From positions 22,184 to 86,183 of the forward strand of contig CAVSQW010000011.1 of assembly GCA_963730185.1 (NCBI GenBank): 64,000 nucleotides of DNA, given 5' to 3'. Below the pieces are notes generated by a model. That model saw nothing but the letters and a program-made list of their open reading frames with translations, was not told where the DNA came from and made no database searches. Positions 31,899 to 51,205 of this stretch are shown piece after piece (positions within the stretch are counted from its first letter, which is position 1; each line of letters opens with the position of its first letter). The position numbers were made by a program, and so were the translations under genes. The stretch is from an uncultured Gemmatimonadales bacterium (GTDB taxonomy: Bacteria; Gemmatimonadota; Gemmatimonadetes; Gemmatimonadales; GWC2-71-9).

Positions 31899-34580
31899 TC
31901 AGTCCGACCGCAACGCCTCCAACGGGTCGACCGCGCTCGCCCGACGGGCGGGTCCGAAGCTCCCGAGCCAGGCCACGACCAGAAAGATCAGGGCGGCGCC
32001 GCCGAAGCTCAGGGCGTCCGTCGAGCCCACTCCGTAGAGCAAGGTTCTGAGCGTCCGACTGGCAAGAACCGCGAGGCCGGTCCCGAGCGCGATCCCGAGC
32101 AGCGCCAATCGAAGGCCGGCCCACGCCATCGCGCGGCGGATCCGGGCGGGCCGCTCCCCCAGGGCGAGCCGCACTCCGATCTCGTGGGTTCGCTGCGCCA
32201 CCAGGAACGACGTCATCGCATAGATCCCGCCGCTGGCGAGGAGCAGGGCCACCAGCGCGAACGCGCCCAGCAGGAAGGCGCTGAACCGGGGTGAGCCCAC
32301 CGCCGTCGCGACGACGTCCTCCAACGTCCTCGTGCCTTGCACGGCGAGCAACGGATCGAGCCCGGCGACTTCACGGCGGAGCGGTTCGACCAACCCGTTC
32401 GGGTCGCCGACCGCGCGGACCACCACCCGCATCGTGCTCCAGGCCAGCTGATCGACCGGCTGGTAGTAGGCCGGGGCCGGCGGGGTCGACAAGTTCCGCT
32501 GCCGAATGTCCCCGACCACGCCCACGATCAGGCGCCCCGCCTCACCGTCCCCGGAATCGATGTGGATCTCCTGTCCGATCGGATCGCGGTCGGCGAAGAA
32601 CTGGCGCGCCAGCGTCTCGTTGATGATCGCCACCGGCGGCGAGCCCTGCCGGTCCTCGGTGCCGAAGGCCCGTCCCCGGAGGATCGGGATCCCCATCGTC
32701 GCGAAGTAGCCGCGCGAGACCAGGCGGAAGTCACCATTCGGGCGCTCCGAACGCGGCGGGGCCTCGTTCCCCACCCAGAAGCCGAAGCTGATGCCATACC
32801 CTTCGAGCGGGACCTGCAGGGCCACCGCTGCCGCCACCACGCCGGGCATCCGATCGAGACGGTCGATCAGCTCCCCCAGGAACCGGCTTCGAGCGGCTTG
32901 ATCCGGATAGCGGGTCTTCGGCAACGACAGCGAGGTCACCAGACCGTGCTCGGCCCGGAAGCCGGGATCAACGGCCACCAGCTTGGCGAGACTTCGCACC
33001 AGAAGGCCCGCCCCGACGGTGAGCACGAGGGCCAGCGTTACCTGGGCCACGACCAGCCCCTGCTGGAGGCGGTAGCGACCCGGCGTCGCGTCGGCCCCGA
33101 GACCGTCGCCTCGGAGCGAGGTCGAGGCGGGGGTCCGGGTCAAGCGGAGCGCCGACACCAGGCCAAGCCCGGCGCCAAGCAGCAGGGAAAGTCCGGCGGC
33201 AAAGCCCATCGCGGTCCAGTCGAGCCGTACCGCGTCGAGCTGAGGCAGGGCGGCGGGGGCCAGCGCCATCACCGCCCGCAGCACGGCCCACCCCAGCGCG
33301 ATGCCGCCCGCGCCCGCGGCCGCTGCGATCACCACGCCTTCGGTGACCAGCAGCCGGGTCAGGCGCCACCGATCGGCGCCGATCGCCGCCCGGACTGCCA
33401 GCTCGCGGCCGTGGGCCGACGCCCGCGCCGTGAGCAAGTTCGCGACGTTGACCCAGGCCACGACCAGCAGCAGACCAACGGCCGCCAGGAACAGCCAGAG
33501 CCGCGGGCCGAGGTCACCGAGCATCGCGTCCTTGAGCGGCTCGAGTCGCGCACCCCATCCGCGCATCTGATCGGGATAGGCCTCGCCGAGCCGGCCCATG
33601 AGGACGTCCATCCGGGACCCGGCGGAGGCCAGGGTCGCCTCAGGCGACAGCCGGCCGATGACGGACAGAAAGTGCGCCCCCCGACTGGTGCTCACGTCGA
33701 AGTGAAAGGACAGCGGCAGCCAGAGCGTCGTTTCGGCGCTCGGGAACCCGAAGTCCCGGGGCATCACCCCGACGATCGTGTAGGCCTCACCGTCGAGCGG
33801 GAGGGTCTGACCGACCACCCCCGAATCGCCGCCCAGCCGCTGGGTCCAGAAGGCATGACTCAGCACGACCACCCGGTCCCGGCCAGGCGTCTCGTCGTCT
33901 CGGCGAAAGCCGCGTCCCATCGCGGGCTTCACGCCCAACGTCGCGAGCCACCCGGCCGAGACCTGGGCCACCGGGATCGACTCCGCCGGGTCGGCCCCGG
34001 ACCACGTCGCCCGGTCCTGCTGAAAAGCCGCCACTCCCGAGAACGCGTCGCGAAGCTGCTCCCGCCAATCGAGAAAGGTGGCCGGCGACGAGGGCCACAG
34101 GCCGGGGTGGTGCTCCGGGTCGGTGTCGTAGATCCGCACCAGGCGGCCCGGCTCCGGGAAGGGAAGCGACCGCAGGGCCACCTGATTCACCAAGCTGAAC
34201 ATCGCGCTGCTCGCCCCGATCCCGATGGCCAGGATGGCCACGGCAACCAGGGTGAACCCGGGGCGCCGGCGGAGCAGTCGGAGCCCGTAGCGAAGATCCA
34301 TCAGCAGCTCGTCCATGGTAATCCTCTTCCCGGAGACCGACGACCCCTTCGCCGTAGACCGGCGGAAACGCTCGGCGAGGCCACTCACGATGACGTTGGC
34401 CACGACCCCGGCCAGATGACGCCGAGCGGCCGCCCGGCCCCGCTCCCGGGCGATCGTCGCGTAACGCTCGGAGGCGATGCCCAGCATCTCGCTCCCGTAC
34501 CGCCGCCGGAACTCGCGCGGGAAGGCCCGGACCGCAGCCCGCACCACCGCCGGGACGCGGCTCCGAGGATCCGCCCTCAC
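31899..34580 (-). CDS. ADOP-family duplicated FtsX/MacB-type permease
   Basis: Two FtsX-like 4-TM modules with large periplasmic domains. It has the N-terminal cytoplasmic extension typical of PadR-coupled permeases. A GTGA overlap joins it to padR. Confidence 0.9.
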
Positions 34581-34930
34581 CGCGGCGTCTCCGTCCCCAG
34601 CAGCCGCCGCGATCGCGCCTGGCGGACCACGGCCGCCAGGCGCCGGGCCTCCGCCCGGGCGACCTCGCGGCCCAGCGCCGTGATCCGGTAGTTCCTCCGC
34701 CGGGACTCGTCCCCGATCGTCGCCGACCCCGAGTCCGCGATCAGGCCCTGCTCGGTCAGCCGGCCGATCAGCCGGTAGAGCGACCCGACCTCGAGGACCA
34801 CCGCCCCGCCGGAGTCGGCCTCGACCCGCTGCATGATCCCATACCCGTGGAGGTCGCCTTCGAGCAGCACCATGAGGATCTGGAAATCGGCCGGCTTGAG
34901 CGGGAGGAACCGATCGGCGGAGGGTGGCAT
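34577..34930 (-). CDS. PadR-family transcriptional regulator
   Basis: [27 protein letters not shown]...[16 protein letters not shown]...[11 protein letters not shown]. Confidence 0.9.
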
Positions 34931-34985
34931 GAAGACCGTCTCTGCGAATAGAAGTATTTTACTTATACCAACCGATCGGTCCCCT
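34931..34985 (-). promoter_or_regulatory. AT-rich promoter/operator region of the padR-permease operon
   Basis: The only AT-rich stretch locally (ctgcgaatagaagtattttacttatacca). It contains the inverted repeat AAGTA-TTT-TACTT (34952-34964). Confidence 0.35.
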
Positions 34986-35121
34986 CGCAAGGGGCAGCCG
35001 GGACGCCAGTGAGACACCCGGCCCGCCGCGATCGTTGGCCGGGTCCCGGAGCGAGCGCGCGGTCTTGCCCCCGGGGACGGGCTCCCGGTTTCTTCCGGGC
35101 GATGACCGGTACCCGTCTCGC

Positions 35122-36169
35122 GTGAGCGACCCACCGTCCCCCGCCCTTCGCACGGCGGACTTCGACTACGCCCTGCCGCCGGAGCTCATCGCCCAGACGC
35201 CGAGCCCGATCCGGGGCGAGAGCCGCCTGCTGGTGGTCCGCCGGGAGGGCGCCCCGGCGCTGGAGGACCGTCGCTTCGGCGAGCTGGCCGACCTGATTCC
35301 ATCAGGGGACCTGCGTGATCCTGAACCGGACCCGCGTCCGCCACGCTCGGCTGCTCGGCACCCGGCCGTCGGGCGCGCCGGCCGAGGTCCTGCTGCTCCA
35401 CCCGGCAACCGACGGGACCTGGGTCGCGATGGGCAAGCCCGGGAGCGCCCTCCGTCCCGGCCGGCGGATCAGGTTGGGTGCGAACGTCGAGGTGGAGACG
35501 CTCGAGGTGCTCGACGGCCCCAACCGCCGGGTCCGGTTCGTCGGGGCCACGGCGGAGGAGGCCATGGCGCGCTTCGGCCGACTCCCGCTCCCACCCTACA
35601 TCGACCACGATCCCACGGCGGTCGACGAAGACCGCTACCAGACCGTCTTCGCCGATCGGGAGTCGAGCGTGGCGGCGCCGACGGCGGGGCTCCACTTCAC
35701 CGAGGCGCTTCTCACCGGCCTCGAGACCCGCGGCGTGGAGCTGGCCCGGCTGGAGCTCGAGGTCGGGCCGGGCACCTTTCGCCCGGTGGAGACCGACGAC
35801 CCTCGCCACCATCCGATGCATCGCGAGGGGTACGAGATCCCGCCCGAGCTGCCGGACGCGATCGCGCGGACCCGCGAGCGGGGCGGCCGGATCTGGGCGA
35901 TCGGCACGACGGTGGTGCGGGCCCTCGAGGCCGCGGCCGAGTCCGGCGAGGTCCGGGCGGGCCGGGCCGAAACGTCGCTCCTGATCCTCCCGGGATCCCG
36001 CTTTCGGGTCGTGGACCGGCTGGTCACCAACTTCCACCTGCCCCGGTCCACGCTCCTGATGCTGGTGAGCGCCCTGGGCGGCACCGAGCGGATCCGGGCC
36101 GCCTACCGCCACGCCGTCGAGGCGCGGTACCGGTTCTACAGCTACGGCGACGCGATGGCGATCCTCTAG
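35122..36169 (+). pseudogene. queA: S-adenosylmethionine:tRNA ribosyltransferase-isomerase (QueA) with a +1 frameshift at 35314
   Basis: The N-terminus (frame of ORF 35035) reads FDYALPPELIAQTPSPIRGESRLLVV...LIPSGDL. It continues in ORF 35315 as VILNRTRVRHARL...PLPPYI...AAPTAGLHFT...GTTVVRALE. The junction is gac ctg C gtg atc. Confidence 0.8.
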
Positions 36170-37368
36170 CCCCCGCCGCCGAACTCCACCCCGTGGCGCT
36201 CCCGCCCGAGCCACGCGGCGATCGCCGCCAGGACGAATACGGTCCCGGCGGTGAGCGCCATGGCGTTGGCGTACGAGGTTCGCTCGGCGAACACCGCCTC
36301 GAGGTACGCCACGGTCCCCGCCAGGGCCACCCCGCACTGATAGGCGAAGCCGGGAAGGAAGCCCCGGACCGCATCGGGTGACATCTCGGTGATGTGGGCC
36401 GGGATCACCCCCCAGGCGCCCTGGACCAGCATCTGAATCAGGAACGCGCCGGGCCAGAGCCAGATCAGCGACGGCGGATAGGCCCAGAGCGGGATCACCA
36501 CCAAGGCGAGCACCAAGGCCAGCACGATCGTCTTCCGACGGCCCAACCGGTCCGACAGATGACCGAAGACCACCCCGCCGATCAGGGCGCCGACCATCGA
36601 GACGATGGTGATCAACATCCGCTCCCGCCCCGCGATCCCGAAGGAGCGCTGCAGGAAGGTCGGGTACATGTCCTGAGTGCTGTGGGCCACGAAGTTCATC
36701 GTCATCAGGAACACGACCAGGTACAGATAGAGCTTCCAGTTCGAGACGATCGCCCGGCCGAGCTGCCCCCAGTCGTGATGCCGGGTCTTCTGCCAGACCT
36801 CCGACTCGCTCACCCGGAAACGGACGAACACCGCCAGGAGCGCCGGCAGCCCGCCGATGAAGAAGAGCGGCCGCCAGCCGAACTTGGGGAACACGAAGAG
36901 GTAGCAGAGGGCCGCCAGGAGATAGCCGCAGGCGTATCCCTCCTGGAGGAGCCCGGAGAGAATCCCCCGGCGGGCGTGGGGTGCCTTTTCCATCGCCAGC
37001 GAGGCGCCGACCCCCCACTCGCCGCCCATCCCGATGCCGAAGAGCGCGCGGAGCACCAGGAAGGTCTCGTAGTTCGGCGCCAGCCCGGAGGCCACCTCGA
37101 TGATGGAGAAGAACACCAGGTTCAGCATCAAGGGGAGGCGCCGCCCGTACCGGTCGGCCATCAGCCCGAAGATGAAGGCGCCGACCGGACGGAACGCCAA
37201 GGTGATCGTGATGGTGAGCGCGATGTCCCGGTCGGGGCGGCCGAATTCCTGCGCGATGGCGGTCAGCGAGACCACCACCAGGAAGTAGTCGAAGGCGTCG
37301 AGGGTCCAGCCCAGGAAGCTGGCCAGCACGGCGGCCCCGGCGGAGTCGTGACGGCGTGGTTTGCTCAT
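36166..37368 (-). CDS. MFS transporter
   Basis: The ATG at 37368 (MSKPRRHDSAGAAVLASFLGWTLDAFDYF...). Twelve TM-like segments and the MFS loop motif GLMADRYGRR. Confidence 0.85.
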   Translation of the reverse strand: MSKPRRHDSAGAAVLASFLGWTLDAFDYFLVVVSLTAIAQEFGRPDRDIALTITITLAFRPVGAFIFGLMADRYGRRLPLMLNLVFFSIIEVASGLAPNYETFLVLRALFGIGMGGEWGVGASLAMEKAPHARRGILSGLLQEGYACGYLLAALCYLFVFPKFGWRPLFFIGGLPALLAVFVRFRVSESEVWQKTRHHDWGQLGRAIVSNWKLYLYLVVFLMTMNFVAHSTQDMYPTFLQRSFGIAGRERMLITIVSMVGALIGGVVFGHLSDRLGRRKTIVLALVLALVVIPLWAYPPSLIWLWPGAFLIQMLVQGAWGVIPAHITEMSPDAVRGFLPGFAYQCGVALAGTVAYLEAVFAERTSYANAMALTAGTVFVLAAIAAWLGRERHGVEFGGGG

Positions 37369-37564
37369 GCGACCAAGTCGCCGGCGGGGGACGCCGGGTC
37401 GGGCGAGGTTGGCTGTGCGAGCGTGAGGCACCGCGAGCGGGCGCGCCGGGCCCAATCTGGGCTCTCCCGGACCGGACCGCCAGGGCGGCTGGCCGCGACG
37501 CTCCGCGGCGGAGATATTCCCAACCTTCCCGATCGACCCCACCCAAGCGAGGTCCTCGATCCCG

Positions 37565-39221: not shown

Positions 39222-39809
39222 ATGAGCCCTCAGTCCACCGCCCTGCCGCCTCTCGCGTCCCTCGACCCGCTCGCCGAGCGGCTCTATCAGGCCCGCACCA
39301 TCCTGATCAGCGGGGAGATCAACCAGGCCCTCGCCGCCGACGTCACGGCCCAGCTGCTGGCCATGAGCGCCGAGAGCGACGCCCCGATCACTCTCTACAT
39401 CAACTCGCAGGGCGGCCACGTCGAGGCCGGTGACACCATCCACGACATGATCCGGTTCATTCGGCCGGAAGTGCGCGCCGTCGGGACGGGATGGGTCGCG
39501 AGCGCGGGCGCCTTGATCTACGTGGCGACGCCCCGCGAGCGTCGCTACTGCCTCCCCAACACCCGCTTCCTGTTGCACCAGCCGGCCGGCGGGGCGGGCG
39601 GCGCGGCGGCCGACATCGACATCGAGGCCCGGGAGATCATCCGGATGCGGGAGCGGTTGAACCGGATCTTTGCCGCGGCCACCGGACAGTCGGTGGAGCG
39701 GATCCAGGAGGACACCCACCGCAACTTCTGGCTCGACGCCGAGGCCGCGAAGAGCTACGGACTCGTGGGCCAGATCATCCAGACGTCGGCCGAGCTCCCC
39801 GCCGGCTGA
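39222..39809 (+). CDS. clpP: ClpP-family protease subunit with a Ser-His-Asn triad variant
   Basis: An ungapped alignment from memory to B. subtilis ClpP runs from LYINS to YGL. Ser (VASAG) and His (LLHQP) are conserved, and Asp172 aligns to Asn (DTHRNFW versus DTDRDNF). Confidence 0.85.
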
Positions 39810-39853
39810 GCGCCATGGGCCCGGGCCCGGACCGGCGACGGGGGGCGCGGAGC

Positions 39854-41224
39854 ATGCACCGGCGGAGCTTCGTTCAGGCCGGGGTCCTGGCCGCTGGGGT
39901 GCCGGCACTCCGGCTCTTCCCCAGACTCGTTCCCCCGGCCCCACGCGCCCTCCCCAGCCCCGCCCAGCTCCGGTGGCAGCGCGACGAGCTGGCCCTCTTC
40001 TGCCACGTCGGCGTCAACACCTTCACCGATCGCGAGTGGGGGGACGGCACCGAAAGCCCCGCGCTCTTTGATCCGCCGGCCCTCGACACCCGGCAATGGG
40101 CCCGCGCCGCAAGCCGCGGCGGCTTCCGCGCCATGATCCTCACCGCCAAGCACCACGACGGCTTTTGCCTCTGGCCCACCAGCACCACCGGGCATTCGGT
40201 CGCGGCCAGCCCGTGGCGCGGCGGGCAGGGCGACCTGGTCCGTGAATTCGTGGACGCCTGCCGGGCCGAAGGCCTTCGCGCGGGACTCTACCTCTCGCCC
40301 TGGGACCGGAACCATCCGGCCTACGGCGACTCGCCCCGCTACAACGACGTCTACGCCGAGCAGCTGACCGAGCTTCTGACCCGGTACGGCCCGATCGCCG
40401 AGATGTGGTTCGACGGCGCCAACGGCGAGGGTCCGAACGGGAAGCGGCAGGAGTACGACTGGCCCCGCTTCTTCGGCCTGGTCCGCCGCCACCAGCCGGA
40501 GGCCGTGATCTTCTCCGACGCGGGGCCGGACGTGCGGTGGTGCGGGAACGAGCGGGGCGAGGCCGGTGACCCAAATTGGTCGCCGGTCGATCCGGCCGCC
40601 GTTCCAGCTCCCGGCGCCACCGGGGACGGCGTCGACGCCGCGCTCCAGCACGGCGACCCATCGGGGTCGGTCTGGCGCCCCGCCGAGTGCGATGTGTCGA
40701 TCCGCCCGGGCTGGTTCCACCATCCGGCGGAGGACGACCAGGTCCGGCCGGTGGACGACCTGGTCCGGCTCTACCTCACCTCGGTCGGCCGGAACGCCAA
40801 GCTCCTCCTCAACGTGCCGCCGACCCGTCGGGGCCTCCTGGCCGACCCGGACGTCGCTCGCCTGGCGGCGTTTCACGACCGGCTGGCCGACCGCTTCGCG
40901 ACCGACCTCGCGGGCGCAGGCCAGCTCCGCTGGCACCGGACCAGCGCCCGGACCGGGATCGCGGAGCTAACCCTGCCGAAGGCGGTGGCGGTCGATACCC
41001 TGCGGCTGGAAGAGCGAATCGAGCGGGGGCAGGCGGTCGCCCGATTCGTCGTGCAGGTGTCGACTGGGAGCGGCTGGACCACCCTGACCGGCGGCACGAC
41101 CATCGGATCCGCCCGATTGCTCGAGGTGCCCGCCACCCCGATCCGGCGGCTCCGGCTGGCCGTGATCGACGCCGCCTGGCCGCCGCTCGAGCCCCGGATC
41201 CGCCTCTACGGTCCCGCCGCGTAG
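39854..41224 (+). CDS. Alpha-L-fucosidase (GH29) with a C-terminal F5/8-type-C-like domain
   Basis: The ATG at 39854 gives a Tat-like signal, MHRRSFVQAGVLAAG. The catalytic region reads AKHHDGFCLWPT...YLSPWD...MWFDGANGEG. Confidence 0.85.
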   Translation: MHRRSFVQAGVLAAGVPALRLFPRLVPPAPRALPSPAQLRWQRDELALFCHVGVNTFTDREWGDGTESPALFDPPALDTRQWARAASRGGFRAMILTAKHHDGFCLWPTSTTGHSVAASPWRGGQGDLVREFVDACRAEGLRAGLYLSPWDRNHPAYGDSPRYNDVYAEQLTELLTRYGPIAEMWFDGANGEGPNGKRQEYDWPRFFGLVRRHQPEAVIFSDAGPDVRWCGNERGEAGDPNWSPVDPAAVPAPGATGDGVDAALQHGDPSGSVWRPAECDVSIRPGWFHHPAEDDQVRPVDDLVRLYLTSVGRNAKLLLNVPPTRRGLLADPDVARLAAFHDRLADRFATDLAGAGQLRWHRTSARTGIAELTLPKAVAVDTLRLEERIERGQAVARFVVQVSTGSGWTTLTGGTTIGSARLLEVPATPIRRLRLAVIDAAWPPLEPRIRLYGPAA

Positions 41225-41304: not shown

Positions 41305-41958
41305 ATGAGCGCCGTCTTCCTGATCGACGCCGTGCTGTTCGACATGGACGGGGTGTTGGTGGACTCACGGGCGGTGATCGAGCGCACCTGGCGCCGCTGG
41401 GCCGAGCGCCATGACCTCGACGCCGACCGGCTCTTCCGAGCCGTCCACGGCCGGCGGACCAGCGAGGCGCTGGCCGACATCGCGCCGGCGATGGACATCA
41501 AGGCCGAAACGGCCTGGCTCGACGCCGCCGAAGTCGACGATCTGGAAGGGATCACGGCGATTCCCGGTGCGCTCGACCTGGTCCGGGCGCTACCCGAGGA
41601 CCGGTGGGGCGTGGTGACCTCGGCCGGGCTGGAGCTGGCCCGCCGACGGCTTCGGGCGGCCGGCCTCCCGACCGAGCCCGCGGTACTGATCACCAGTGCC
41701 GACGTCGAGCGCGGCAAGCCGGCGCCCGACGGCTACCTCCAGGCCGCCGGCGATCTCGGGGTTCGACCCGGCGACTGCCTCGTGTTCGAGGACGCCCGGC
41801 CGGGGATTGCCGCCGCCAAGGCGGCCGGCGCGCAGGTCGTCGCGATCACCACCACGGCCCCCAGCGCCGAGCTCCGGGCCGCGGATGTGGTGATCGACGA
41901 CCTCCGGCGGGTGAGGGTCGACCGCGAGGCCGACCAAATCGTGATCCGGATCAGGTAG
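41305..41958 (+). CDS. HAD-superfamily hydrolase (beta-phosphoglucomutase-like)
   Basis: DAVLFDMDGVLVDS (DxDG), VTSA, and KPAPDGY...FEDARPGIAAAKAAG. Confidence 0.85.
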   Translation: MSAVFLIDAVLFDMDGVLVDSRAVIERTWRRWAERHDLDADRLFRAVHGRRTSEALADIAPAMDIKAETAWLDAAEVDDLEGITAIPGALDLVRALPEDRWGVVTSAGLELARRRLRAAGLPTEPAVLITSADVERGKPAPDGYLQAAGDLGVRPGDCLVFEDARPGIAAAKAAGAQVVAITTTAPSAELRAADVVIDDLRRVRVDREADQIVIRIR

Positions 41959-42118: not shown

Positions 42119-42922
42119 CTAACGACCGGCCGGCACCGGCGGACGGCGCCCCGGACGGGCGGCGAATCTCTCCGGCTGCCGGCGGAGGCTGGGCGGCAAG
42201 GCGACCAGCGTCGGCTCGACCCGCTCGACCGGCGCCACCAGCCCGGCGTGCCGGAGCGCAGCCTCCATCACCCACTCCCAGCCGAGCCGCGCCCGGAACC
42301 GGCGGACGCTCACCCCCAGATACCGACGGGTCCACGATCGGAAGGTGCGGACGCCCACCCCGGCCCGCCAGGCGAGGACGTCGACCGATGCGTCGTCGAT
42401 CGTCGCCGCCACCCGGGCCAGAGTCCCCACCGCCCGCCAGCAGTGCGCCGTGAGCGGTCCGAAACGACGGAGCCGATCCCGGATGGTCCGCCCGGGGATC
42501 GCCTCGCTGATCGGCACGTCGACCGGGCGGGCCATCAGCAACGCAAGCTCCGCGCGGATCTCGGCTCGCCCCGTTCGGCGAACCACGTAATCGGCCAGGT
42601 AGCCGCTCCCGGGGACCACCCGGGACCGGACCGCCGTCGTGACCCGATCGGTAAGCTGCCGGACCGCAATCGGGCCCGGGGTAAAGCACAGCTGCCCGGG
42701 AAGCGAATGAATGGCGCTCAGAACGGCCGGGTCCGCGGTGCCGGCCGTGGCGACCAAGCAGAGCGTGCACCAGGGAGCCCGCCTGAGGAGCTGCGCCGAC
42801 TCCCCCCCGATCGCCTCGACCGACTCGGCCTCGACCACCGCGATCGTTCCCAAGGGCGGAAGATCGTGGATGAGGCCATCGACCACGTGGTAGGGCGGGG
42901 TCAGCAATCGGATCCGAGGCAT
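42119..42922 (-). CDS. Hypothetical regulator with a C-terminal AraC-like helix-turn-helix
   Basis: The C-terminal VDVLAWRAGVGVRTFRSWTRRYLGVSVRRFRARLGWEWVMEAAL resembles the second HTH of AraC-type regulators. It is divergent from the lasso cluster. Confidence 0.5.
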   Translation of the reverse strand: MPRIRLLTPPYHVVDGLIHDLPPLGTIAVVEAESVEAIGGESAQLLRRAPWCTLCLVATAGTADPAVLSAIHSLPGQLCFTPGPIAVRQLTDRVTTAVRSRVVPGSGYLADYVVRRTGRAEIRAELALLMARPVDVPISEAIPGRTIRDRLRRFGPLTAHCWRAVGTLARVAATIDDASVDVLAWRAGVGVRTFRSWTRRYLGVSVRRFRARLGWEWVMEAALRHAGLVAPVERVEPTLVALPPSLRRQPERFAARPGRRPPVPAGR

Positions 42923-43231: not shown

Positions 43232-43543
43232 ATGCGATTTCCTTGGAGCAACACCCGAACCACGACGGTCCCGGACGCCCGCACCCGCTGGCAGCCCACC
43301 ACCGACGTGACCAGCGCGGTCCACGGCGATCGGACCGTGCTGATGGATCTCCGGTCGGAACAGTTCTTCACCCTCGACGACGTCGGCGCGCGGATTTGGG
43401 AGAGCCTCGGTCGCACGGCGACGGTGGACGAGATCACCGCGTCCCTGGTCCAGATCTACGACGCCCCGGCCGCGGAGGTCCGCCGCGACGTCGAAGCCTT
43501 CGTCGCGGACCTGAGCCGCGACGGCCTGATCTGCGAGGCCTGA
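43232..43543 (+). CDS. Lasso peptide biosynthesis PqqD-family chaperone (B1 / RiPP recognition element)
   Basis: GDRTVLMDLRSEQFFTLDDVGARIWESLGRTATVDEITASLVQIYDAPAAEVRRDVEAFVADLSRDGLI, a PqqD-like winged-helix pattern. Confidence 0.85.
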   Translation: MRFPWSNTRTTTVPDARTRWQPTTDVTSAVHGDRTVLMDLRSEQFFTLDDVGARIWESLGRTATVDEITASLVQIYDAPAAEVRRDVEAFVADLSRDGLICEA

Positions 43544-43544
43544 G

Positions 43545-43934
43545 GTGAGTTCACGCGGTCCCGGTCCGGTGGTCGCCGTCGCGACCCTCGCCCTGACTCG
43601 GTCGAGCCTCCGCTTCCTCGGGTTCCGGCGGACCCTCCGTCTGGTGCGTTGGGCCGCCGGCCCGGCGACGAGGCCCCGGCGCGGCACGGTCGAGCGCGGC
43701 GCCCGCTCGGTCGCGGTGGCGGCGGCGTTCTTTCCCGGCCGAGCCGTCTGCCTGGAACAGTCCCTGGCGCTGTATCTCCTCCTCCGCCGCCGCGGGCATC
43801 CAGCCGTGCTCAAGATCGGGGTCCAGCCGTATCCCTTCGAGGCCCATGCCTGGGTGGAGATCGACGGCCGCCCCGTATTCGAGAACGAGGATGCGCTGAG
43901 CAAGTACGTGCCCTTCCCGGGAGCGTTCGCGTGA
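43545..43934 (+). CDS. Lasso peptide leader peptidase (B2, transglutaminase-like cysteine protease)
   Basis: CLEQSLALYLLLRRRGHPAVLKIGV...EAHAWVEIDGRPV supplies the Cys/His/Asp triad context. The GTG start lies 1 nt after the B1 stop. Confidence 0.85.
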   Translation: MSSRGPGPVVAVATLALTRSSLRFLGFRRTLRLVRWAAGPATRPRRGTVERGARSVAVAAAFFPGRAVCLEQSLALYLLLRRRGHPAVLKIGVQPYPFEAHAWVEIDGRPVFENEDALSKYVPFPGAFA

Positions 43935-45817
43935 ACCCGTTCGTCTGCGCCATCGACCTCCGGGGCGCCCCGATCGGCCTCTCGGCTCTGGATCCGGCGC
44001 TCCCCGGCCTGACCCGGGGCGACGGACGCCCCGAGCTCGTCCTGAACGGCTGCTGGGGAGGCGCCTGGGCGCCGTCGCCCCTTGGCCGTCCGCTGGCCAC
44101 CCGACGGCAGGGCACCATCGCGATCGGTACCGCCCGGCTCTCCAATCGCGAGGCGCTGGCCGGTCTGCCGGCCGACCGGCTGGCCCCGCTCACCGACCTC
44201 GACCTGGTCGTCGAACGGTATCTCCGCCGTGGTCCCGAGGCCGTCGCGGATCTGGTCGGCGACTTCGCGTTCGTCCTCTGGGACGAGCAACAGGCCCTGC
44301 TCCTCGCGGCCCGCGACGCCCTCGGCGTCAAGCCGCTCTACTGGCAGCAGCGGGGCAGCACGCTGCTGGTGGCCTCCCACGTCGAGTGCCTGGATCAGGG
44401 CAGCTACGACCGGAGCTACATAACCCGGTTCGCCATGGCCCAGGTCGGGCCCGCCGACGCGACGGTGTACACCAACGTCAAGCGGGTCGCCCCCGGCTCC
44501 TACCTCCTGGCACGGGGTCCCAAGGTGTCGACCGAGCAGTACTGGTCGCCCTGGACCTTCCGGGCGGGATCGGCCGGCGACGATGTCGAGGCCACGGTGG
44601 CCGAGTTCCGGGGCCGGTTCGACGAGGCAGTTCAGGCCCAGCTCGACGATCGACGCGACACCTGGGTGCTCCTCTCGGGCGGGCTCGATTCGTCAGCGGT
44701 GGTGGGCGCCGCGAGCCGGCTGGCCGAGCGGGACTTGGTTCGGCCGCTGGCGGGCACGGTGACCGTGGTCGACTCGCTCGCCGACGGTGACGAGACCCGT
44801 TACTCCGACGCGGTGGCCCGGCGGTGGGACCTCCGGAACGAGCGGATCCACGACTTCTGGGCCTGGCAGCCCGACCCGGACGCCACCGTGGCACTGGCCG
44901 AGCCGCGCCACTTCCTCCCGTTCTTCGCCCGGGACCGCGCCCTTTGCGGTGCGGTGCGGAGCCAGGGCGGCCGCGTGCTCCTCAGCGGCTACGGCTCAGA
45001 CCAGTATCTGAGTGGCAGCTTCGACTATCTCGCCGACCTGGTCCGGACCCGGCGGACCCGGGAAGCCATGGCCGAACTGACCCGGCTGGCCGTTGCGACT
45101 CGACGCTCATTCTGGGGGCTGGGAATGACCCACGCGATCGCGCCGATTGCCCCGGGGTGGCTGGCCCGGCGGATCCAGGGCCCGGCCCAGCGGCCCGCCT
45201 GGGTGCTGGGCGACGTGCCTCCGGTGGTGTCCCCCGAGGACCTCCGCCGGCTCCGCGAGGAGCACGGGGTCTACGGGAGCCAGGTAGCGGCCGAGGTGGC
45301 CTGCACCGACCTGCTGCTCGAGCGAGGCGTATTCGAGCAGGGGCTCGAGATGCGCTACCCGTTCCTGCACCGGCCGCTGGTGGAGCTGGCACTCCAGCTC
45401 CCCGTGAACCTCCGGATGCGCCCCGGCGCCAAGAAGTGGATTCTGCGGGAATCGTTGCGAGATGTCCTACCCGAGGCGATCCGCACCCGGCCGGGCAAAG
45501 GCGGGATCGACGGCCGAGTCCTCTGGTCGCTCCACCACGAGCGCCGGCTGCTCCGCCGGCTGATCCTCGACTCCCATCTCGCCGACCTGGGCTGCGTCGA
45601 CCGACAGGCGCTGGCCGAAGCCTTCGATCGGGCCGCCGCGGGACAGACGGGTGACGTCACCCGGCTCTTCTTCACCCTTTCTCTCGAAACCTGGCTGGCC
45701 GTCCGTTCCGGGTGGTGGGCGGCCAACGCTTCACGATTGCAGTCCCGGAGTACTCCGTCCTTCTCGTCGCAGTCAACTCAAAAGGAGCAGCACTATGTCG
45801 AAGCTTCAGTACACTAA
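43931..45817 (+). CDS. Lasso peptide cyclase (C, asparagine synthetase B-like)
   Basis: The GTG at 43931 overlaps the B2 stop (GTGA). GDFAFVLWDEQQALLLAARDALGVKPLYW, the PP-loop LLSGGLDSSAVV, and RMRPGAKKWILRE. Confidence 0.9.
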   Translation: MNPFVCAIDLRGAPIGLSALDPALPGLTRGDGRPELVLNGCWGGAWAPSPLGRPLATRRQGTIAIGTARLSNREALAGLPADRLAPLTDLDLVVERYLRRGPEAVADLVGDFAFVLWDEQQALLLAARDALGVKPLYWQQRGSTLLVASHVECLDQGSYDRSYITRFAMAQVGPADATVYTNVKRVAPGSYLLARGPKVSTEQYWSPWTFRAGSAGDDVEATVAEFRGRFDEAVQAQLDDRRDTWVLLSGGLDSSAVVGAASRLAERDLVRPLAGTVTVVDSLADGDETRYSDAVARRWDLRNERIHDFWAWQPDPDATVALAEPRHFLPFFARDRALCGAVRSQGGRVLLSGYGSDQYLSGSFDYLADLVRTRRTREAMAELTRLAVATRRSFWGLGMTHAIAPIAPGWLARRIQGPAQRPAWVLGDVPPVVSPEDLRRLREEHGVYGSQVAAEVACTDLLLERGVFEQGLEMRYPFLHRPLVELALQLPVNLRMRPGAKKWILRESLRDVLPEAIRTRPGKGGIDGRVLWSLHHERRLLRRLILDSHLADLGCVDRQALAEAFDRAAAGQTGDVTRLFFTLSLETWLAVRSGWWAANASRLQSRSTPSFSSQSTQKEQHYVEASVH

Positions 45818-45908
45818 GCCGAGCGTCACCAAGGTCGGCCCCGTGGTCGTCAAGACCGAGGGCTACTGGACCGGGTTCAACATGGAGCTCATGAGCCTCC
45901 GTCCGTAA
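45795..45908 (+). CDS. Lasso peptide precursor (A), 37 aa: MSKLQYTKPSVTKVGPVVVKTE / GYWTGFNMELMSLRP
   Basis: AAGGAG (45782-45787) lies 7 nt before the ATG. The leader fits YxxPxLxxxGxxxxxTx exactly in spacing (Y6, P9, V11, G15, T21). The core starts with Gly and has its only acidic residue at position 9. It sits inside the longer track ORF 45651..45908. Confidence 0.8.
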   Translation: MSKLQYTKPSVTKVGPVVVKTEGYWTGFNMELMSLRP

Positions 45909-45948
45909 GCTGACCAAGGTTCGGGGGCGCACCAGCGCCCGCGGCCAC

Positions 45949-45985
45949 GACCCCCGTCCGCCTCCCAAAATGGCGGCCGGGGGTC
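45949..45985 (+). terminator. GC-rich hairpin after the precursor gene
   Basis: GACCCCCGTCCGCC (45949-45962), a 9-nt loop, then GGCGGCCGGGGGTC (45972-45985). Thirteen of 14 positions pair. Followed by cgtcgTTTG. Confidence 0.5.
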
Positions 45986-46051: not shown

Positions 46052-48652
46052 GTGGAATCCACCTCCCCACCCGACGCGGGGCCCGGGCCCCCTCCCGCCC
46101 TGGCTATTCCTGAGGCGCCAACCGGCCGTTCCTGGCTGACCTACTGGTGGCGCCACGACGGCTGGGTCGCGGCGCTGGCCGTCGTGGTCGTGGCGATCGT
46201 CGAGTTGGTCCCGCGTCCTCTTGGTCGGCCGGGGCAGCGTCCCGGCCTGTTGGTGTACCTCGCGCCCGTCCTGACCGCGTTCGCCATCCTGATTTGCTGG
46301 TTGCGGGCCGCCCGCGCCGCCAAGGGCGATCGGGCCATCCGGCTGGTGACCCGCACCGGCGTGGTGACCACGGCGGCCGCCGCGGTCGGGGTGCTGCTGC
46401 TTCAGTCGCAGAACGTCGCGCTCGGCCTCGGTCGGCAGCCGGTCGGTGTGCTGATCCTGATCAGTTCGATCCTGATCCTCCTCGAAGGTCCGCTCTGGGT
46501 CGTCGCCATCCTAGTGTGGCCTCCCCGCGAGCGGCAGCGTGAAACCGGCTGGTACGTCGCGTTGGACGTGGCGATCATGATCCTCGCGACCAGTGCCGTA
46601 TTCTGGTATGCCCAGGTCCGGATTACCCCAGACCCGACCAACGCACCGCCCAACATCCATGCCGTCGTCGTGATCTGGGCGATCATGCTGCTGGGCCTCA
46701 GCGTGGCCGTCCTCCGAGGCTCGATTGCCCGATACGAACTGGCATTCCGCCTCTTGGTCGGCGCGCTGGTGGCCACCTTTTTCGTCAACTTCGCCCTGAC
46801 CGTCTTCAACGCTGCCACGGCACTGGAACTCGTCAATACGCCCGTCCTGGTAGCCGGCGTCGCCCTCCGCATCGCCGGCGCCGAGGCCATCCGGCTCCGC
46901 CTTCCACTCCCGGGCGCCCCCGGCGAGGGCACCCACCGGAGCCCGCTCCCGTGGGTCGCCGTGCTGGCCATCGGCGTGCTCGCCTTCCGCCTGGCCATGA
47001 CGGAGCACGACAGCGGCCTCGGCCCGGTGGTGCTGATCACCCTCTGCATCACCGTCCTGCTCCTCCTTCGCCAGTCGGTGGTGATGCGCCAGAACGCCCG
47101 GCTCCTGGCCGAGCGGGCCCAGCACGAGGCCGACGCCCGGATCGCGGCCCTGGTCCGGCACACGTCCGACGTGATCCTGATCGCCGATCAGTCGCTCCGG
47201 GTCCGCTTCGCGTCACCGTCGGCGGAGGGACTCTGGGCCGGTGATCCGGCCCGGATCCTCGGGCTCGAGGTCGGCGAGCTGGTGGATCCCCTGCAGCGGG
47301 TCGAGGTCGAGCGAGCGCTCGCCGAGCGGCTGACCCGGCCCGGGCAGAGTGCCACCACCCGCTGGCGGATGCTCGGCGTCGAAGGCGACTGGCGGAAGAT
47401 CGAAGCCGTCATCACCAACCTGTTGCATGAGCCGTCGGTCGGCGGGGTGGTGTTGACGCTCCGCGACCAGACCGAGCGCGCCGACCTCGAGGAACAGCTT
47501 CAGCAGGCCCAGAAGATGGAGGCGATCGGCCAGCTGGCCGGCGGGATCGCCCATGACTTCAACAACCTGCTCACGACCGTGTTGGGGCACAGCGAGCTCG
47601 GGCTCGACTCCCTCGAAGCCGGTCATCCGGTCCGGGCTGATTTCGAGCAGATCAAGCGGGCGGCCGAGCTGGCCGCGGCGCTCACCAAGCAGCTGCTCGC
47701 CTTCAGCCGGAAGCAGCTGATCGAGCCCACCGCCATCGACGTGGCCGAGTCCATCCCCAAGATCGCCGGGTTGCTCAAGCGGCTGATCGAGGAGCGGATC
47801 CGGACGGTCATCGAGGTCGCGCCCGACGTGGGGATGGTCCAGATGGACCCGTCCCAGCTCGAGCAGGTCATCATCAACCTGGCCATCAACGCCCGCGACG
47901 CGATGCCGCACGGCGGCTCGCTCACCATCCGAGCCCGCCGCGAACAGGTGACGAGCGAGCTCACCGGCGTCGTGCCGGTCGCGCCGGGCGACTATCTGGT
48001 CATCGACGTCGCCGATACCGGCGTCGGGATCGACGCCGCCACCCAGGCCCGGATCTTCGAGCCCTTCTTCACGACCAAGCCCCCCGGCCGGGGCACCGGC
48101 CTCGGGTTGGCGAGCGTCTATGGCGTGGTGAACCAGAACAAGGGCGGCCTCCGGCTGAAGAGCGCACTCGGCCAGGGCAGCACCTTCTCGGTGTACCTCC
48201 CGGCCCTCAAGGAAGGCGCCGATCTCCCGGCCGTCCCGACCGAGCCGCGACGCCCCGGCATGGCCGATGCGCTGGTGCTCCTGGTCGAGGACGAACCCTG
48301 GCTCCGCGACATCGCCTACAAGGTCCTGACCCGCGAAGGGTACCGGGTCATGGTGGCGGGCGACGCCGCAGAGGCCCTGGTCCAGGCCGCCCGCTCCACT
48401 GAGGCCATCGACCTCCTGCTCACCGACGTGATCATGCCCGGGATGAGCGGCCCCAGCCTGGCCGCCCGGCTCCGAAGCGACCAGCCCAGCCTCCGAGTGC
48501 TCTTCATGTCGGGCTACGTCGCCGCCGACCTCGGGGGCGAGCTGGGGCCCGCCGACCAGCTGCTCCGGAAGCCGTTTACACCTTACGTGATGCTCGAGGC
48601 CGTCCGGGCCACCCTCGACGCACCGACTCTGCCGGCCCCGCCCACGCCTTGA
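46052..48652 (+). CDS. Hybrid sensor histidine kinase / response regulator with a large polytopic N-terminal membrane domain
   Basis: About 8-10 TM helices in the first ~330 aa, then a PAS-like region. H-box [10 protein letters not shown], HATPase GTGLGLASV, and a C-terminal [16 protein letters not shown]...[12 protein letters not shown] start. Confidence 0.9.
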
Positions 48653-48736: not shown

Positions 48737-51205
48737 TCAGGAGGTCCGGAGCGCCTCCATCGGATCGACCCGGCTGGCCCGGCGGGCCGGGATCGCGCTC
48801 GCCACCAACGACACGGCCAGCACCACGACCGCCACCGCCCCGAACACCAGCGGGTCGGTCGGGCTGGTTCCATGGAGCAGGTCTCGGATCAGCCCGGTCG
48901 CGAACCGGGCCCCGACGATCCCGAGCCCGAGGCCGATCGCCGTGAGGCGGACCGCGTCGCGGAGCACCATCCGACGGATCTCGGCCTGGCTCGCCCCTAA
49001 CGCGCCGCGAATCCCGATCTCCCGGGTCCGCCGCCCGACGGCATACGCCAGCACGCCATGCACGCCAATCAGCGCCAGCAGGAACCCAACGACGGCGAAG
49101 CCCACGATCTGCAACGTGGTCACCCGGACCCCGCCCAGCTGCTCCGCCACCCGGTCGGCCACCAGGCTGGCGAATACCGGTCGGTCGGGCACCGACCGGA
49201 CCAGGAGGTCGCGCATCGGCTTGACCAATCCGCTCGGCGACCCCGCCGCGCGCACGAAGAAACTCGGAAAGGCCGACGGCGCCTGCTCGTAGGGCCGGTA
49301 CACCTCGGGGCCGTCGTCCGCCAGAAGGAGGCTCCCCTGCGCCCCCTTGTGATCGTGGACCACCCCCACGACGGCGATCTCGGCCGGCCGGCCGGGCGCG
49401 GTGTCCACCCGGAAGGTCTGGCCCACGGCGTCCTGACCCGGCCACCACCGCCGGGCCGCCCATTGGTTCACGATCGCGACCGGCGGGGTCCGCTCCAGGT
49501 CTCGGTCGGTGAACTCGCGGCCCTGGAGCACGGTGACGCCCAGGGTGGCGAAGAAACCCGGACTGACCGAAAACTCGACCGGCGGCACCAATGGGGGCGG
49601 CAACGGTCCCGCCCTCCCGGTCGGGGTAACTTCGGGCGATTTGCCTCGGGGGCCGAGCGGCACCGGCGCCTCGAGCGCCACGGACCGGGCGCCCGGCAAC
49701 TCGCCCAGGTCGGCCAGGATCTGGCGGGTGACCGGGACATAAGTCTCCCTGACCCGCCAGGGATGAGGATAGCTCGGCGTCCCTTCGAGCAGCGTTGCCG
49801 GGCGGAAGCCCAGGTCGAGCTCCGACAGCCGGAGTGCGGTCCGGGTCATGAGCCCGGCCCCCACCAGCAGCACCACCGCCGAGGCGATCTGGGCGACCAC
49901 GAAGGCCTGCTGCATCCGGTTCCCGAGTCGGCCACCACCCGACGAGGGCGCCCCCTCGCGCAGCACCAAGGCCACCTCGGCCCGGGCCGCCATCCGTCCC
50001 GGCAGCAGGCTCAACCCCACTCCGACGATCACCGCCAACACCGCCGTGAAGGCCACCACCGGCCCGTCGAGCCGGTATTCCATCCCGGCCGGCCGGATCG
50101 AGTCGAGCACGGTGAGCGACTGCAGCACGTTGAGGAACCATGACGCGAAGAGAAGACCGCCGACGAACGCCAAGGCCACCACGAAGGCGTACTGAACCAG
50201 CAGGTCGCCCGCCAAGCGGAGGGGCCGGGCGCCGAGCGCCGCGCGCACCCCGAACTCGCGTTGCTGATCGAGCGCCCGGACCAGAACCAGGTTGGCGAGA
50301 TTGGCGCAGGCGATCAGCAGAATGCAGGCGACGATCGCGGCCAGGATCAGGTCGTGGGCCCGGGTCGAGGTGGTGTACCGGTCGCGAAGCGGCGCGGCCT
50401 CGAGGCGGAACCGGGGCGCGTTCGGCCCCGCGCTGGCCGGCACCGGCACCTCGATCGTGGCGAGCTCGGCCCGGAGCTGCTCGACGGTCCGCCCCGGCGC
50501 CAAGCGGCCGATCGCGGTGATCGACCGGATCGACGGCCGGGTGCTGGGATCGAGGGTCGGGACCGCCGGAAGCCAGAAGCGGTTCCCCACCTCGTGATGG
50601 AACCCGGGCGGCATCACCCCCACCACGACGTAGTGGCTGTCGCTCAGCTTGATGGTCTGACCGATGATGGCCGGATCACCGCCGAGCTCGTCCTTCCAGA
50701 GGTCGTGACTGATCAGCACTACCAGCGGCACGTTGAGCCGATCGTCTTCCGCGGTGAAGAGCCGACCGAGCTCCGGTGTGACACCAAGCATCGAGAAGAG
50801 GCTCGGGGTGGCCACCCCGCCGAAGACGACGATCGGCTCGCCGCCCTTGTTCAGGGCTTTACCGCCCGAGGTATAGGCGGCCACCTGGTCCATGGTTTGG
50901 AAGTGATGGACCGCGATCAGATCGGCGTAGGCCTCGTAGGCGACGTCGCAGGCGGAGCGGCACCCGGAGGGCGGCACCGCACCCGCGCCGTCGTCGATCG
51001 GAACCTCGCTCAAGAGCACCAACCGGTCGCCGTCCTTGAACGGGAGGGCCCGGAAGCGGACCGCGTCGACCACCGCGAACGCCGCCGCCGCGGCGCCCAG
51101 GGCAAGGGCCAGCGAGAGGACGGCGGTGACCAGGAAGCCGGGACTCCGGACCAGCGTTCGGATCCCGATCCGGGCATCACGGATGAACGAGGAGAACGAT
51201 GCCAT
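48737..51205 (-). CDS. ADOP-family duplicated FtsX/MacB-type permease (second copy, no adjacent PadR or ATPase)
   Basis: MASFSSFIRDARIGIRTLVRSPGFLVTAVLSLALALGA..., with two FtsX modules. Paralogous to 31899..34580. Confidence 0.9.
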   Translation of the reverse strand: MASFSSFIRDARIGIRTLVRSPGFLVTAVLSLALALGAAAAAFAVVDAVRFRALPFKDGDRLVLLSEVPIDDGAGAVPPSGCRSACDVAYEAYADLIAVHHFQTMDQVAAYTSGGKALNKGGEPIVVFGGVATPSLFSMLGVTPELGRLFTAEDDRLNVPLVVLISHDLWKDELGGDPAIIGQTIKLSDSHYVVVGVMPPGFHHEVGNRFWLPAVPTLDPSTRPSIRSITAIGRLAPGRTVEQLRAELATIEVPVPASAGPNAPRFRLEAAPLRDRYTTSTRAHDLILAAIVACILLIACANLANLVLVRALDQQREFGVRAALGARPLRLAGDLLVQYAFVVALAFVGGLLFASWFLNVLQSLTVLDSIRPAGMEYRLDGPVVAFTAVLAVIVGVGLSLLPGRMAARAEVALVLREGAPSSGGGRLGNRMQQAFVVAQIASAVVLLVGAGLMTRTALRLSELDLGFRPATLLEGTPSYPHPWRVRETYVPVTRQILADLGELPGARSVALEAPVPLGPRGKSPEVTPTGRAGPLPPPLVPPVEFSVSPGFFATLGVTVLQGREFTDRDLERTPPVAIVNQWAARRWWPGQDAVGQTFRVDTAPGRPAEIAVVGVVHDHKGAQGSLLLADDGPEVYRPYEQAPSAFPSFFVRAAGSPSGLVKPMRDLLVRSVPDRPVFASLVADRVAEQLGGVRVTTLQIVGFAVVGFLLALIGVHGVLAYAVGRRTREIGIRGALGASQAEIRRMVLRDAVRLTAIGLGLGIVGARFATGLIRDLLHGTSPTDPLVFGAVAVVVLAVSLVASAIPARRASRVDPMEALRTS

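Follow-up and report, generated by a model that had tools for sequence, protein, structure and literature searches.

The locus described here lies on a 64-kb stretch of a Gemmatimonadota chromosome (contig CAVSQW010000011.1 of an uncultured Gemmatimonadales bacterium; we refer to the whole stretch as the window) and is very probably a minimal class II lasso-peptide biosynthetic operon with the gene order B1-B2-C-A. This assignment is built on the four genes, the families to which their products belong, a motif in the leader of the precursor, and an arrangement that is conserved in relatives, and it is about as secure as sequence analysis permits. A first-pass annotation of the window had proposed a split-B lasso-peptide cluster with the precursor last, and both the family matches and the position of the precursor uphold that proposal.

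Gene coordinates are based on the list of open reading frames (ORFs) and the raw sequence (Table 1). Both reproduce what had been annotated, four consecutive plus-strand lasso genes with coupled junctions, including the overlaps. B2 begins with GTG one nucleotide past the TGA stop codon of B1. The stop codon of B2 and the start codon of C, also GTG, overlap in the sequence GTGA. Finally, the ATG of the precursor gene (45795) falls within C, 23 nt from its 3' end, with AAGGAG positioned 7 nt upstream. Third-position GC content (GC3) is 0.83-0.92 across all four ORFs, like that of other genes in this window of 70% GC.

Table 1. Features of the lasso-peptide locus and its surroundings (positions in the window)
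Feature	Position	Strand	Remarks
ADOP/MacB-like orphan permease	31899-34580	-	preceded by PadR regulator
PadR regulator	34577-35134		
Major facilitator superfamily (MFS) gene	36166-37542		nearby transport gene
Alpha-L-fucosidase-like	39491-41224		
HAD hydrolase	41305-41958		
Divergent protein	42119-42922	-	267 aa; no Pfam or NCBIfam family; 12.8-bit HTH_18 hint at residues 146-212
B1, PqqD-like recognition element for peptides synthesized by ribosomes and modified after translation (RiPPs)	43232-43543	+	103 aa
B2, transglutaminase-like leader peptidase	43545-43934	+	129 aa
C, asparagine-synthetase-like lasso cyclase	43931-45817	+	628 aa
Shine-Dalgarno AAGGAG for A	45782-45787	+	inside 3' end of C; read from sequence
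A, precursor	45795-45908	+	37 aa
Leader of A, MSKLQYTKPSVTKVGPVVVKTE	45795-45860	+	22 aa
Core of A, GYWTGFNMELMSLRP, plus stop codon	45861-45908	+	15 aa
Two GC-rich stem-loops	45925-45940 and 45949-45985	+	directly 3' of precursor stop
Hybrid histidine kinase	46052-48652	+	polytopic; PAS, HisKA, HATPase, REC
ADOP-family duplicated permease (MacB_PCD/FtsX)	48737-51205	-	
Big_5 protein, Maf, D-Tyr-tRNA deacylase	downstream of 51205		

The products of B1, B2 and C all match profile hidden Markov models associated with lasso biosynthesis, with B1 and C below their NCBIfam cutoffs, and the motifs quoted in the first-pass annotation (CLEQS and HAWVEID in B2, SGGLDSS in C) are present. B2 passes the lasso-specific equivalog-domain cutoff of NCBIfam NF033537 lasso_biosyn_B2 (100.8 bits, cutoff 33) and matches Pfam Transglut_core3 (E = 1.1e-27); the PDB holds no sequence relative of it at E <= 1. 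The CLEQS Cys and the HAWVE His each show at least 95% conservation across 93 B2 homologues. B1 matches Pfam PqqD PF05402 with 69 bits (E = 4.6e-19, cutoff 23.4). Among NCBIfam models, the lasso PqqD chaperones NF033530 and NF033536 score best, each under its high cutoff; among solved structures, B1 is closest to the lasso recognition elements TbiB1 (5v1u, E = 3e-6), 9x90_B and TfuB1 (6jx3). B1 is predicted to bind the precursor leader. NF033535, the model for the lasso isopeptide-forming cyclase, is the best NCBIfam match of C (210 bits, E = 5e-62, under the 525-bit cutoff). C also matches Pfam Asn_synthase PF00733 (E = 8.8e-42), GATase_7 and the generic asparagine synthase model TIGR01536; among solved structures, its relatives are AsnB and beta-lactam synthetase. 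The PP-loop SGGLDSS is retained without change in 32 homologues. Because its N-terminus reads MNPF, C does not have Cys2, the glutaminase nucleophile found in true glutamine-dependent asparagine synthetases; its homologues share the same MN.F.CA start.

Is the small ORF at the end of C a genuine precursor? It reads as the leader MSKLQYTKPSVTKVGPVVVKTE followed by the core GYWTGFNMELMSLRP, and gene callers had already annotated it in public records. Tyr-17, Pro-14, Gly-8 and Thr-2 of the leader fit the pattern YxxPxLxxxGxxxxxTx, with Val replacing Leu at -12; the YxxPxL motif and the role of Thr(-2) in lasso leaders have been described (PMC10368454). The NCBIfam model NF033521 lasso_leader_L3 aligns over its full 20 positions with residues 6-25, scoring 15.4 bits (cutoff 19), and a related precursor, in locus L091 of the set introduced below, clears that cutoff with 22.4 bits. 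We also searched all six frames of the 64 kb with a regular expression combining the leader motif with Gly/Ala/Ser/Cys-x(5-7)-Asp/Glu. It found one site, which is precursor A at the end of C, against a chance expectation of 0.04 per 64 kb (the mean over 100 Markov-random sequences). Lasso precursors have a leader with the YxxP motif bound by the recognition element and Thr at -2, and a core that begins with Gly, Ala, Ser or Cys and carries Asp or Glu at position 7-9; precursor A has all of these, with Gly1 and Glu9 in its core.

The core contains no Cys, hence the assignment to class II. Glu9 is its sole acidic residue, so no macrolactam other than a nine-membered Gly1-Glu9 ring is possible. 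The product is predicted to be a 15-residue threaded class II macrolactam of sequence GYWTGFNMELMSLRP, with a Gly1-Glu9 ring and a 6-residue tail in which Arg14 would likely be the lower steric plug. The computed monoisotopic mass of the dehydrated core is 1782.822 Da ([M+2H]2+ 892.418). Its cleavage site, ring size, threading and enzymatic steps are those that would be expected from the sequences, every step of the pathway being inferred by homology. A strong ribosome-binding site of its own, located at the 3' end of the cyclase gene, would drive translation of the 37-residue precursor. B1 would then bind the leader via the YxxP...G...T(-2) motif, and B2, as a Cys/His protease, would cut after Thr-Glu to free Gly1 of the core. 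C would adenylate the side chain of Glu9 through its PP-loop and subsequently join Glu9 to the Gly1 amine around the pre-folded tail.

Several points weigh against this account. The product is a prediction from the genes. The 6-residue tail is short, and for this reason a threaded versus a branched-cyclic topology is not predictable from sequence. The cyclase and B1 score beneath the very high cutoffs of the NCBIfam 'exception' models, and the alignment of 93 homologues does not allow a third catalytic residue of B2 to be assigned. Moreover, no peptide was detectable when biosynthetic gene cluster (BGC) 44.1, a soil cluster of like gene order that is compared below, was expressed in E. coli or Burkholderia (PMC9064862).

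How far does the arrangement extend beyond this genome? At E <= 1e-20 the homologues of the cyclase number about 1,000, and the named entries among the best 120 are all Gemmatimonadota, Gemmatimonadales or Longimicrobiales. The closest homologues of the cyclase and the neighbouring kinase carry these same three labels, in line with a Gemmatimonadota-like host, one of the two phyla suggested at first pass. From scans of one-genome-per-species contigs and Joint Genome Institute (JGI) metagenomes, 160 loci (L001-L160) were collected, to which context look-ups added eight (L161-L168), with L166-L168 lacking lasso genes. In the closest relative, L161, the cyclase is 76% identical and synteny extends over ~18 kb. 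The syntenic L161 precursor, also 37 residues, consists of leader MSKLQYTKPSIKRVGPVVAKTE and core GYWRGFNAEVFSLRD; it differs from the window precursor by 10 synonymous and 9 non-synonymous codon differences, with all motif positions kept. The GC3 of precursor A is 0.92. Two further variants within 90% identity, with core GYWTGLNMELMSLRP, occur in JGI metagenomes. The leader is conserved in L161, L001 and L081-L086, and all precursor motif positions are retained across relatives that are 47-76% identical. All 11 precursors of the nearest subclade keep Gly1, Glu9 and Arg14 but vary at ring positions 2-8. A conserved tail motif, E-hydrophobic-[MFL]-[ST]-x-R, is confined to these closest 11 precursors.

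The first-pass annotation regarded the B1-B2-C-A order as unusual. We surveyed gene order in 87 related, mostly Gemmatimonadota loci with a cyclase match at E < 1e-60, and the claim does not hold. Wherever the upstream sequence is long enough (58/58 loci), B2 directly precedes C, and B1 and B2 are both upstream in 49 of the 58. Just downstream of C, 53/73 loci carry at least one motif-bearing precursor (several precursors in 13 loci), an underestimate because the motif is strict; an upstream motif-bearing precursor was found in 0/46 loci. The conserved 3' small ORF that a search of homologous loci had been expected to reveal is therefore present, and a large Gemmatimonadota/Acidobacteriota-type clade has B1-B2-C-A(n) as its standard architecture. 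Among more distant loci, the precursor-last order occurs in Acidobacteriota, Nitrospira (Nitrospirota), Methylomirabilota, Binatia, Chloroflexota and Cyanobacteria, and the precursor-first order in six, four of them alphaproteobacterial (Sphingobium, Mesorhizobium, Sphingopyxis). The order is also in print: the Acidobacteriia soil cluster BGC 44.1 was listed in 2022 as D1-D2-B1-B2-C-A, with A called by antiSMASH (PMC9064862). Since the order is both standard for the clade and already published, it supports no claim of novelty.

Precursor number and form vary among these loci. Tandem arrays of 3-6 precursor genes lie downstream of the cyclase in L154 (1400-2721), L157, L159, L141, L125 and L097; the six L154 precursors share a conserved TTHAMLDL-like C-terminal tail. 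The precursors of L093 and L102 carry long Asp/Pro-rich C-terminal extensions.

The GC hairpin noted after the precursor at first pass is real: it comprises two stems, and the 106-nt region after A folds at -59.4 kcal/mol (z = -4.2), a value equalled by 0/200 dinucleotide shuffles. It has no T-run, and a consensus terminator scan makes no call there. In 10/10 subclade loci the precursor stop codon is followed within ~60 nt by a strong hairpin; the hairpin sequences are unrelated, and the one in L083 carries a T-run like a canonical terminator. These stem-loops probably serve as an operon-end terminator or attenuator.

How does the cluster compare with known lasso systems? Actinobacterial split-B clusters usually place the precursor gene first (A-C-B1-B2 or similar) and often include an ABC exporter. 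The cluster resembles the proteobacterial class II systems of the caulosegnin and astexin type in its predicted Gly1-to-Glu9/Asp9 macrolactam, lack of disulfides and lack of an ABC exporter in the cluster; it differs from them in that they have a fused B protein, the order A-C-B, a dedicated isopeptidase and cores of about 19-23 residues. The isopeptidase gene of the astexin type, prolyl-oligopeptidase-like, stands beside the cluster, whereas no peptidase gene adjoins the cluster in the window; in L163 and L164, Peptidase_S9 genes occur several genes off, in the chromosomal backbone. Clusters of the microcin J25/capistruin type (ABCD) carry a McjD-type exporter/immunity gene. In the window, no ABC_tran ATPase gene that could represent one lies within ~10 kb, nor does any isopeptidase, HPr-type kinase, methyltransferase or other tailoring gene, which bears out the first-pass remark that the cluster has no such neighbours. 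The MFS gene and the two ADOP/MacB-like permeases of Table 1 are the only nearby genes for transport. Without an exporter or immunity gene, the cluster does not imply an antibiotic role.

Two more known systems resemble the cluster. The stand-alone PqqD-like proteins TbiB1 (5V1U/5V1V) and TfuB1 (6JX3), of fusilassin/fuscanodin type, bind a YxxP leader and work with a separate B2 cysteine protease and an ATP-dependent cyclase, as predicted here; these systems are, however, actinobacterial, and the sequence similarity to the window B1 is remote (E = 3e-6). BGC 44.1 (Negri et al. 2022, PMC9064862) shares the split B1 (PqqD), B2 (PF13471), C (Asn_synthase) and small A in the order B1-B2-C-A. Like the window, it comes from an uncultured bacterium, in its case a soil bacterium of a neighbouring phylum, and has so far yielded no detected product. 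It differs in having two ABC transporter genes (D1, D2) directly upstream, where the window has none; the comparison covered gene families and gene order.

Does the gene that follows the cluster belong with it? In the hybrid histidine kinase encoded there, a polytopic membrane domain of ~350 residues precedes the PAS, HisKA, HATPase and REC domains. Its N-terminal 360 residues (46052-47131) match no Pfam family, and this fragment by itself scored no hits in a word-indexed protein search, which missed even the kinase and was thus uninformative. In the window, L001, L081-L086, L161 (where it is frameshifted), L163, L164 and L165, the kinase comes after the precursor. It is a recurrent neighbour, and a functional link is possible but unproven. 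On one reading, the lasso peptide would be a signal that is sensed or controlled by the kinase, B1-B2-C-A and the kinase forming one functional module. We consider this unlikely. In its favour, the kinase lies directly 3' of the precursor in all 13 subclade loci with downstream sequence, the outer flanks of the kinase-bearing lasso loci differ, and many of the best kinase orthologs are on contigs equal in size to those bearing cyclase homologues. More distant Gemmatimonadota lasso loci have PAS hybrid kinases downstream, or a histidine kinase and an OmpR-type regulator upstream, and the absence of an exporter or immunity gene would suit a signal. Furthermore, the lasso peptides siamycin I and sviceucin act on the membrane histidine kinases FsrC and VanS (PMC11872507), which makes the idea worth testing. 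Those peptides, however, are disulfide-bridged, actinobacterial members of class I that inhibit kinases of other species, whereas here the core has no cysteines and the kinase is encoded by the producer's own neighbouring gene.

Other observations speak against a link. The kinase ortholog P0139 (L166; 53% identity, 91% coverage) sits without lasso genes in a backbone common to L164, and because of this one ortholog the kinase-lasso link is only suggestive. Kinase homologues at 39-41% identity have unrelated neighbours and no adjacent lasso genes, and of the 35 clade loci in which 2.5 kb or more of downstream sequence is available, 24 have no such kinase there. The hairpin between A and the kinase, strong in 10/10 loci and terminator-like in L083, separates the two, and all these genomes are related, so that shared ancestry can account for the synteny. 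We therefore give a low probability to the proposal that the downstream hybrid kinase of this Gemmatimonadales subclade has the lasso peptide as its cognate ligand, or mediates the regulation of the peptide. If it were true, the locus would be a self-contained module of peptide signal and sensor, its product an autoinducer rather than an antibiotic, in a phylum not known to have a characterised RiPP.

The kinase region itself varies among relatives. L166 (5140-8499) and L164 (6369-12595) represent a presence/absence polymorphism in an Amidohydro_3-ECH-kinase-Peptidase_S15 backbone: the lasso genes lie between ECH and the kinase in L164, and L166 has a 72-bp gap there instead. In L165 (4071-7932, on a 4.4-Mb Gemmatimonadales contig), a minus-strand insertion sequence (IS) with rve integrase and HTH_Tnp_1 splits the kinase into a 196-residue N-terminal fragment and a 643-residue remainder. 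In L161 (10000-12800), the kinase-homologous region is broken across frames, which could reflect long-read indel errors or a pseudogene.

Could the cluster instead be cryptic or decaying, with no mature peptide made in the host? No sigma-70-like promoter was found upstream of B1 in a scan restricted to the sigma-70 type; other promoter types would escape such a scan. The failed expression of the same-order Acidobacteriia cluster (PMC9064862) would fit this possibility, and the disrupted kinases of L161 (frameshifts) and L165 (IS) indicate that local decay can occur. The lasso genes themselves, however, give a different picture. All four ORFs are intact with coupled junctions, the catalytic motifs are conserved, the precursor motif positions persist in relatives as little as 47% identical, and the GC3 values are typical of this genome's expressed genes. 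A silent locus is thus improbable, and a functional lasso operon is the reading we retain. That C is an ordinary asparagine synthetase paralogue, standing by chance beside PqqD-like and transglutaminase-like genes and a spurious small ORF, would accord with its generic TIGR01536 and PF00733 matches and its solved relatives, but is effectively refuted by the missing Cys nucleophile, the B2 score above the curated cutoff of NF033537, the conservation of the four-gene block with its leader motif in dozens of loci, and the low chance expectation of that motif.

What, then, does the lasso cluster add? Thousands of such clusters have already been predicted, with 7,701 RODEO precursors cited in one study (PMC12480086), and antiSMASH-detected lasso BGCs have been reported in 29 marine Gemmatimonadota metagenome-assembled genomes (PMC11316326). 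The Gemmatimonadota literature that we found consists of census-level reports of lasso clusters. Our limited literature coverage turned up no report of a lasso peptide isolated from Gemmatimonadota or Acidobacteriota, which agrees with the first-pass annotation and is not proof. The cluster is mildly new in having no exporter or tailoring gene, in its recurrent kinase neighbour, and in coming from Gemmatimonadota, for which we found no isolated lasso peptide. It adds one predicted class II lasso peptide with a short, 15-residue core from an under-sampled phylum and leaves the understanding of lasso biosynthesis unchanged. With four genes, no tailoring and a length of about 2.7 kb, it could offer a compact target for production in a heterologous host or a cell-free system, and the clade-wide architecture and tail motif are useful for genome mining.

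The wider surroundings of the operon are listed in Table 1; the 64-kb window is free of tRNA genes, and no Rfam family reaches its gathering score there. The 267-residue protein encoded divergently from B1 could be a local regulator. A search of L001-L160 gave no match to it, and a 270-aa gene occupies the same position in L161 and L162. The convergent ADOP permease gene beyond the kinase was considered as the missing exporter and rejected: the family is highly paralogous, with two copies in the window, and this copy has no ATPase partner. ADOP permeases recur near related lasso clusters, which may be coincidence given this paralogy. ADOP genes come after the precursors in L107, L142 and L150: the one in L107 (4554-7004) directly follows the precursor, and in L142 and L150 one lies between two cyclase genes.

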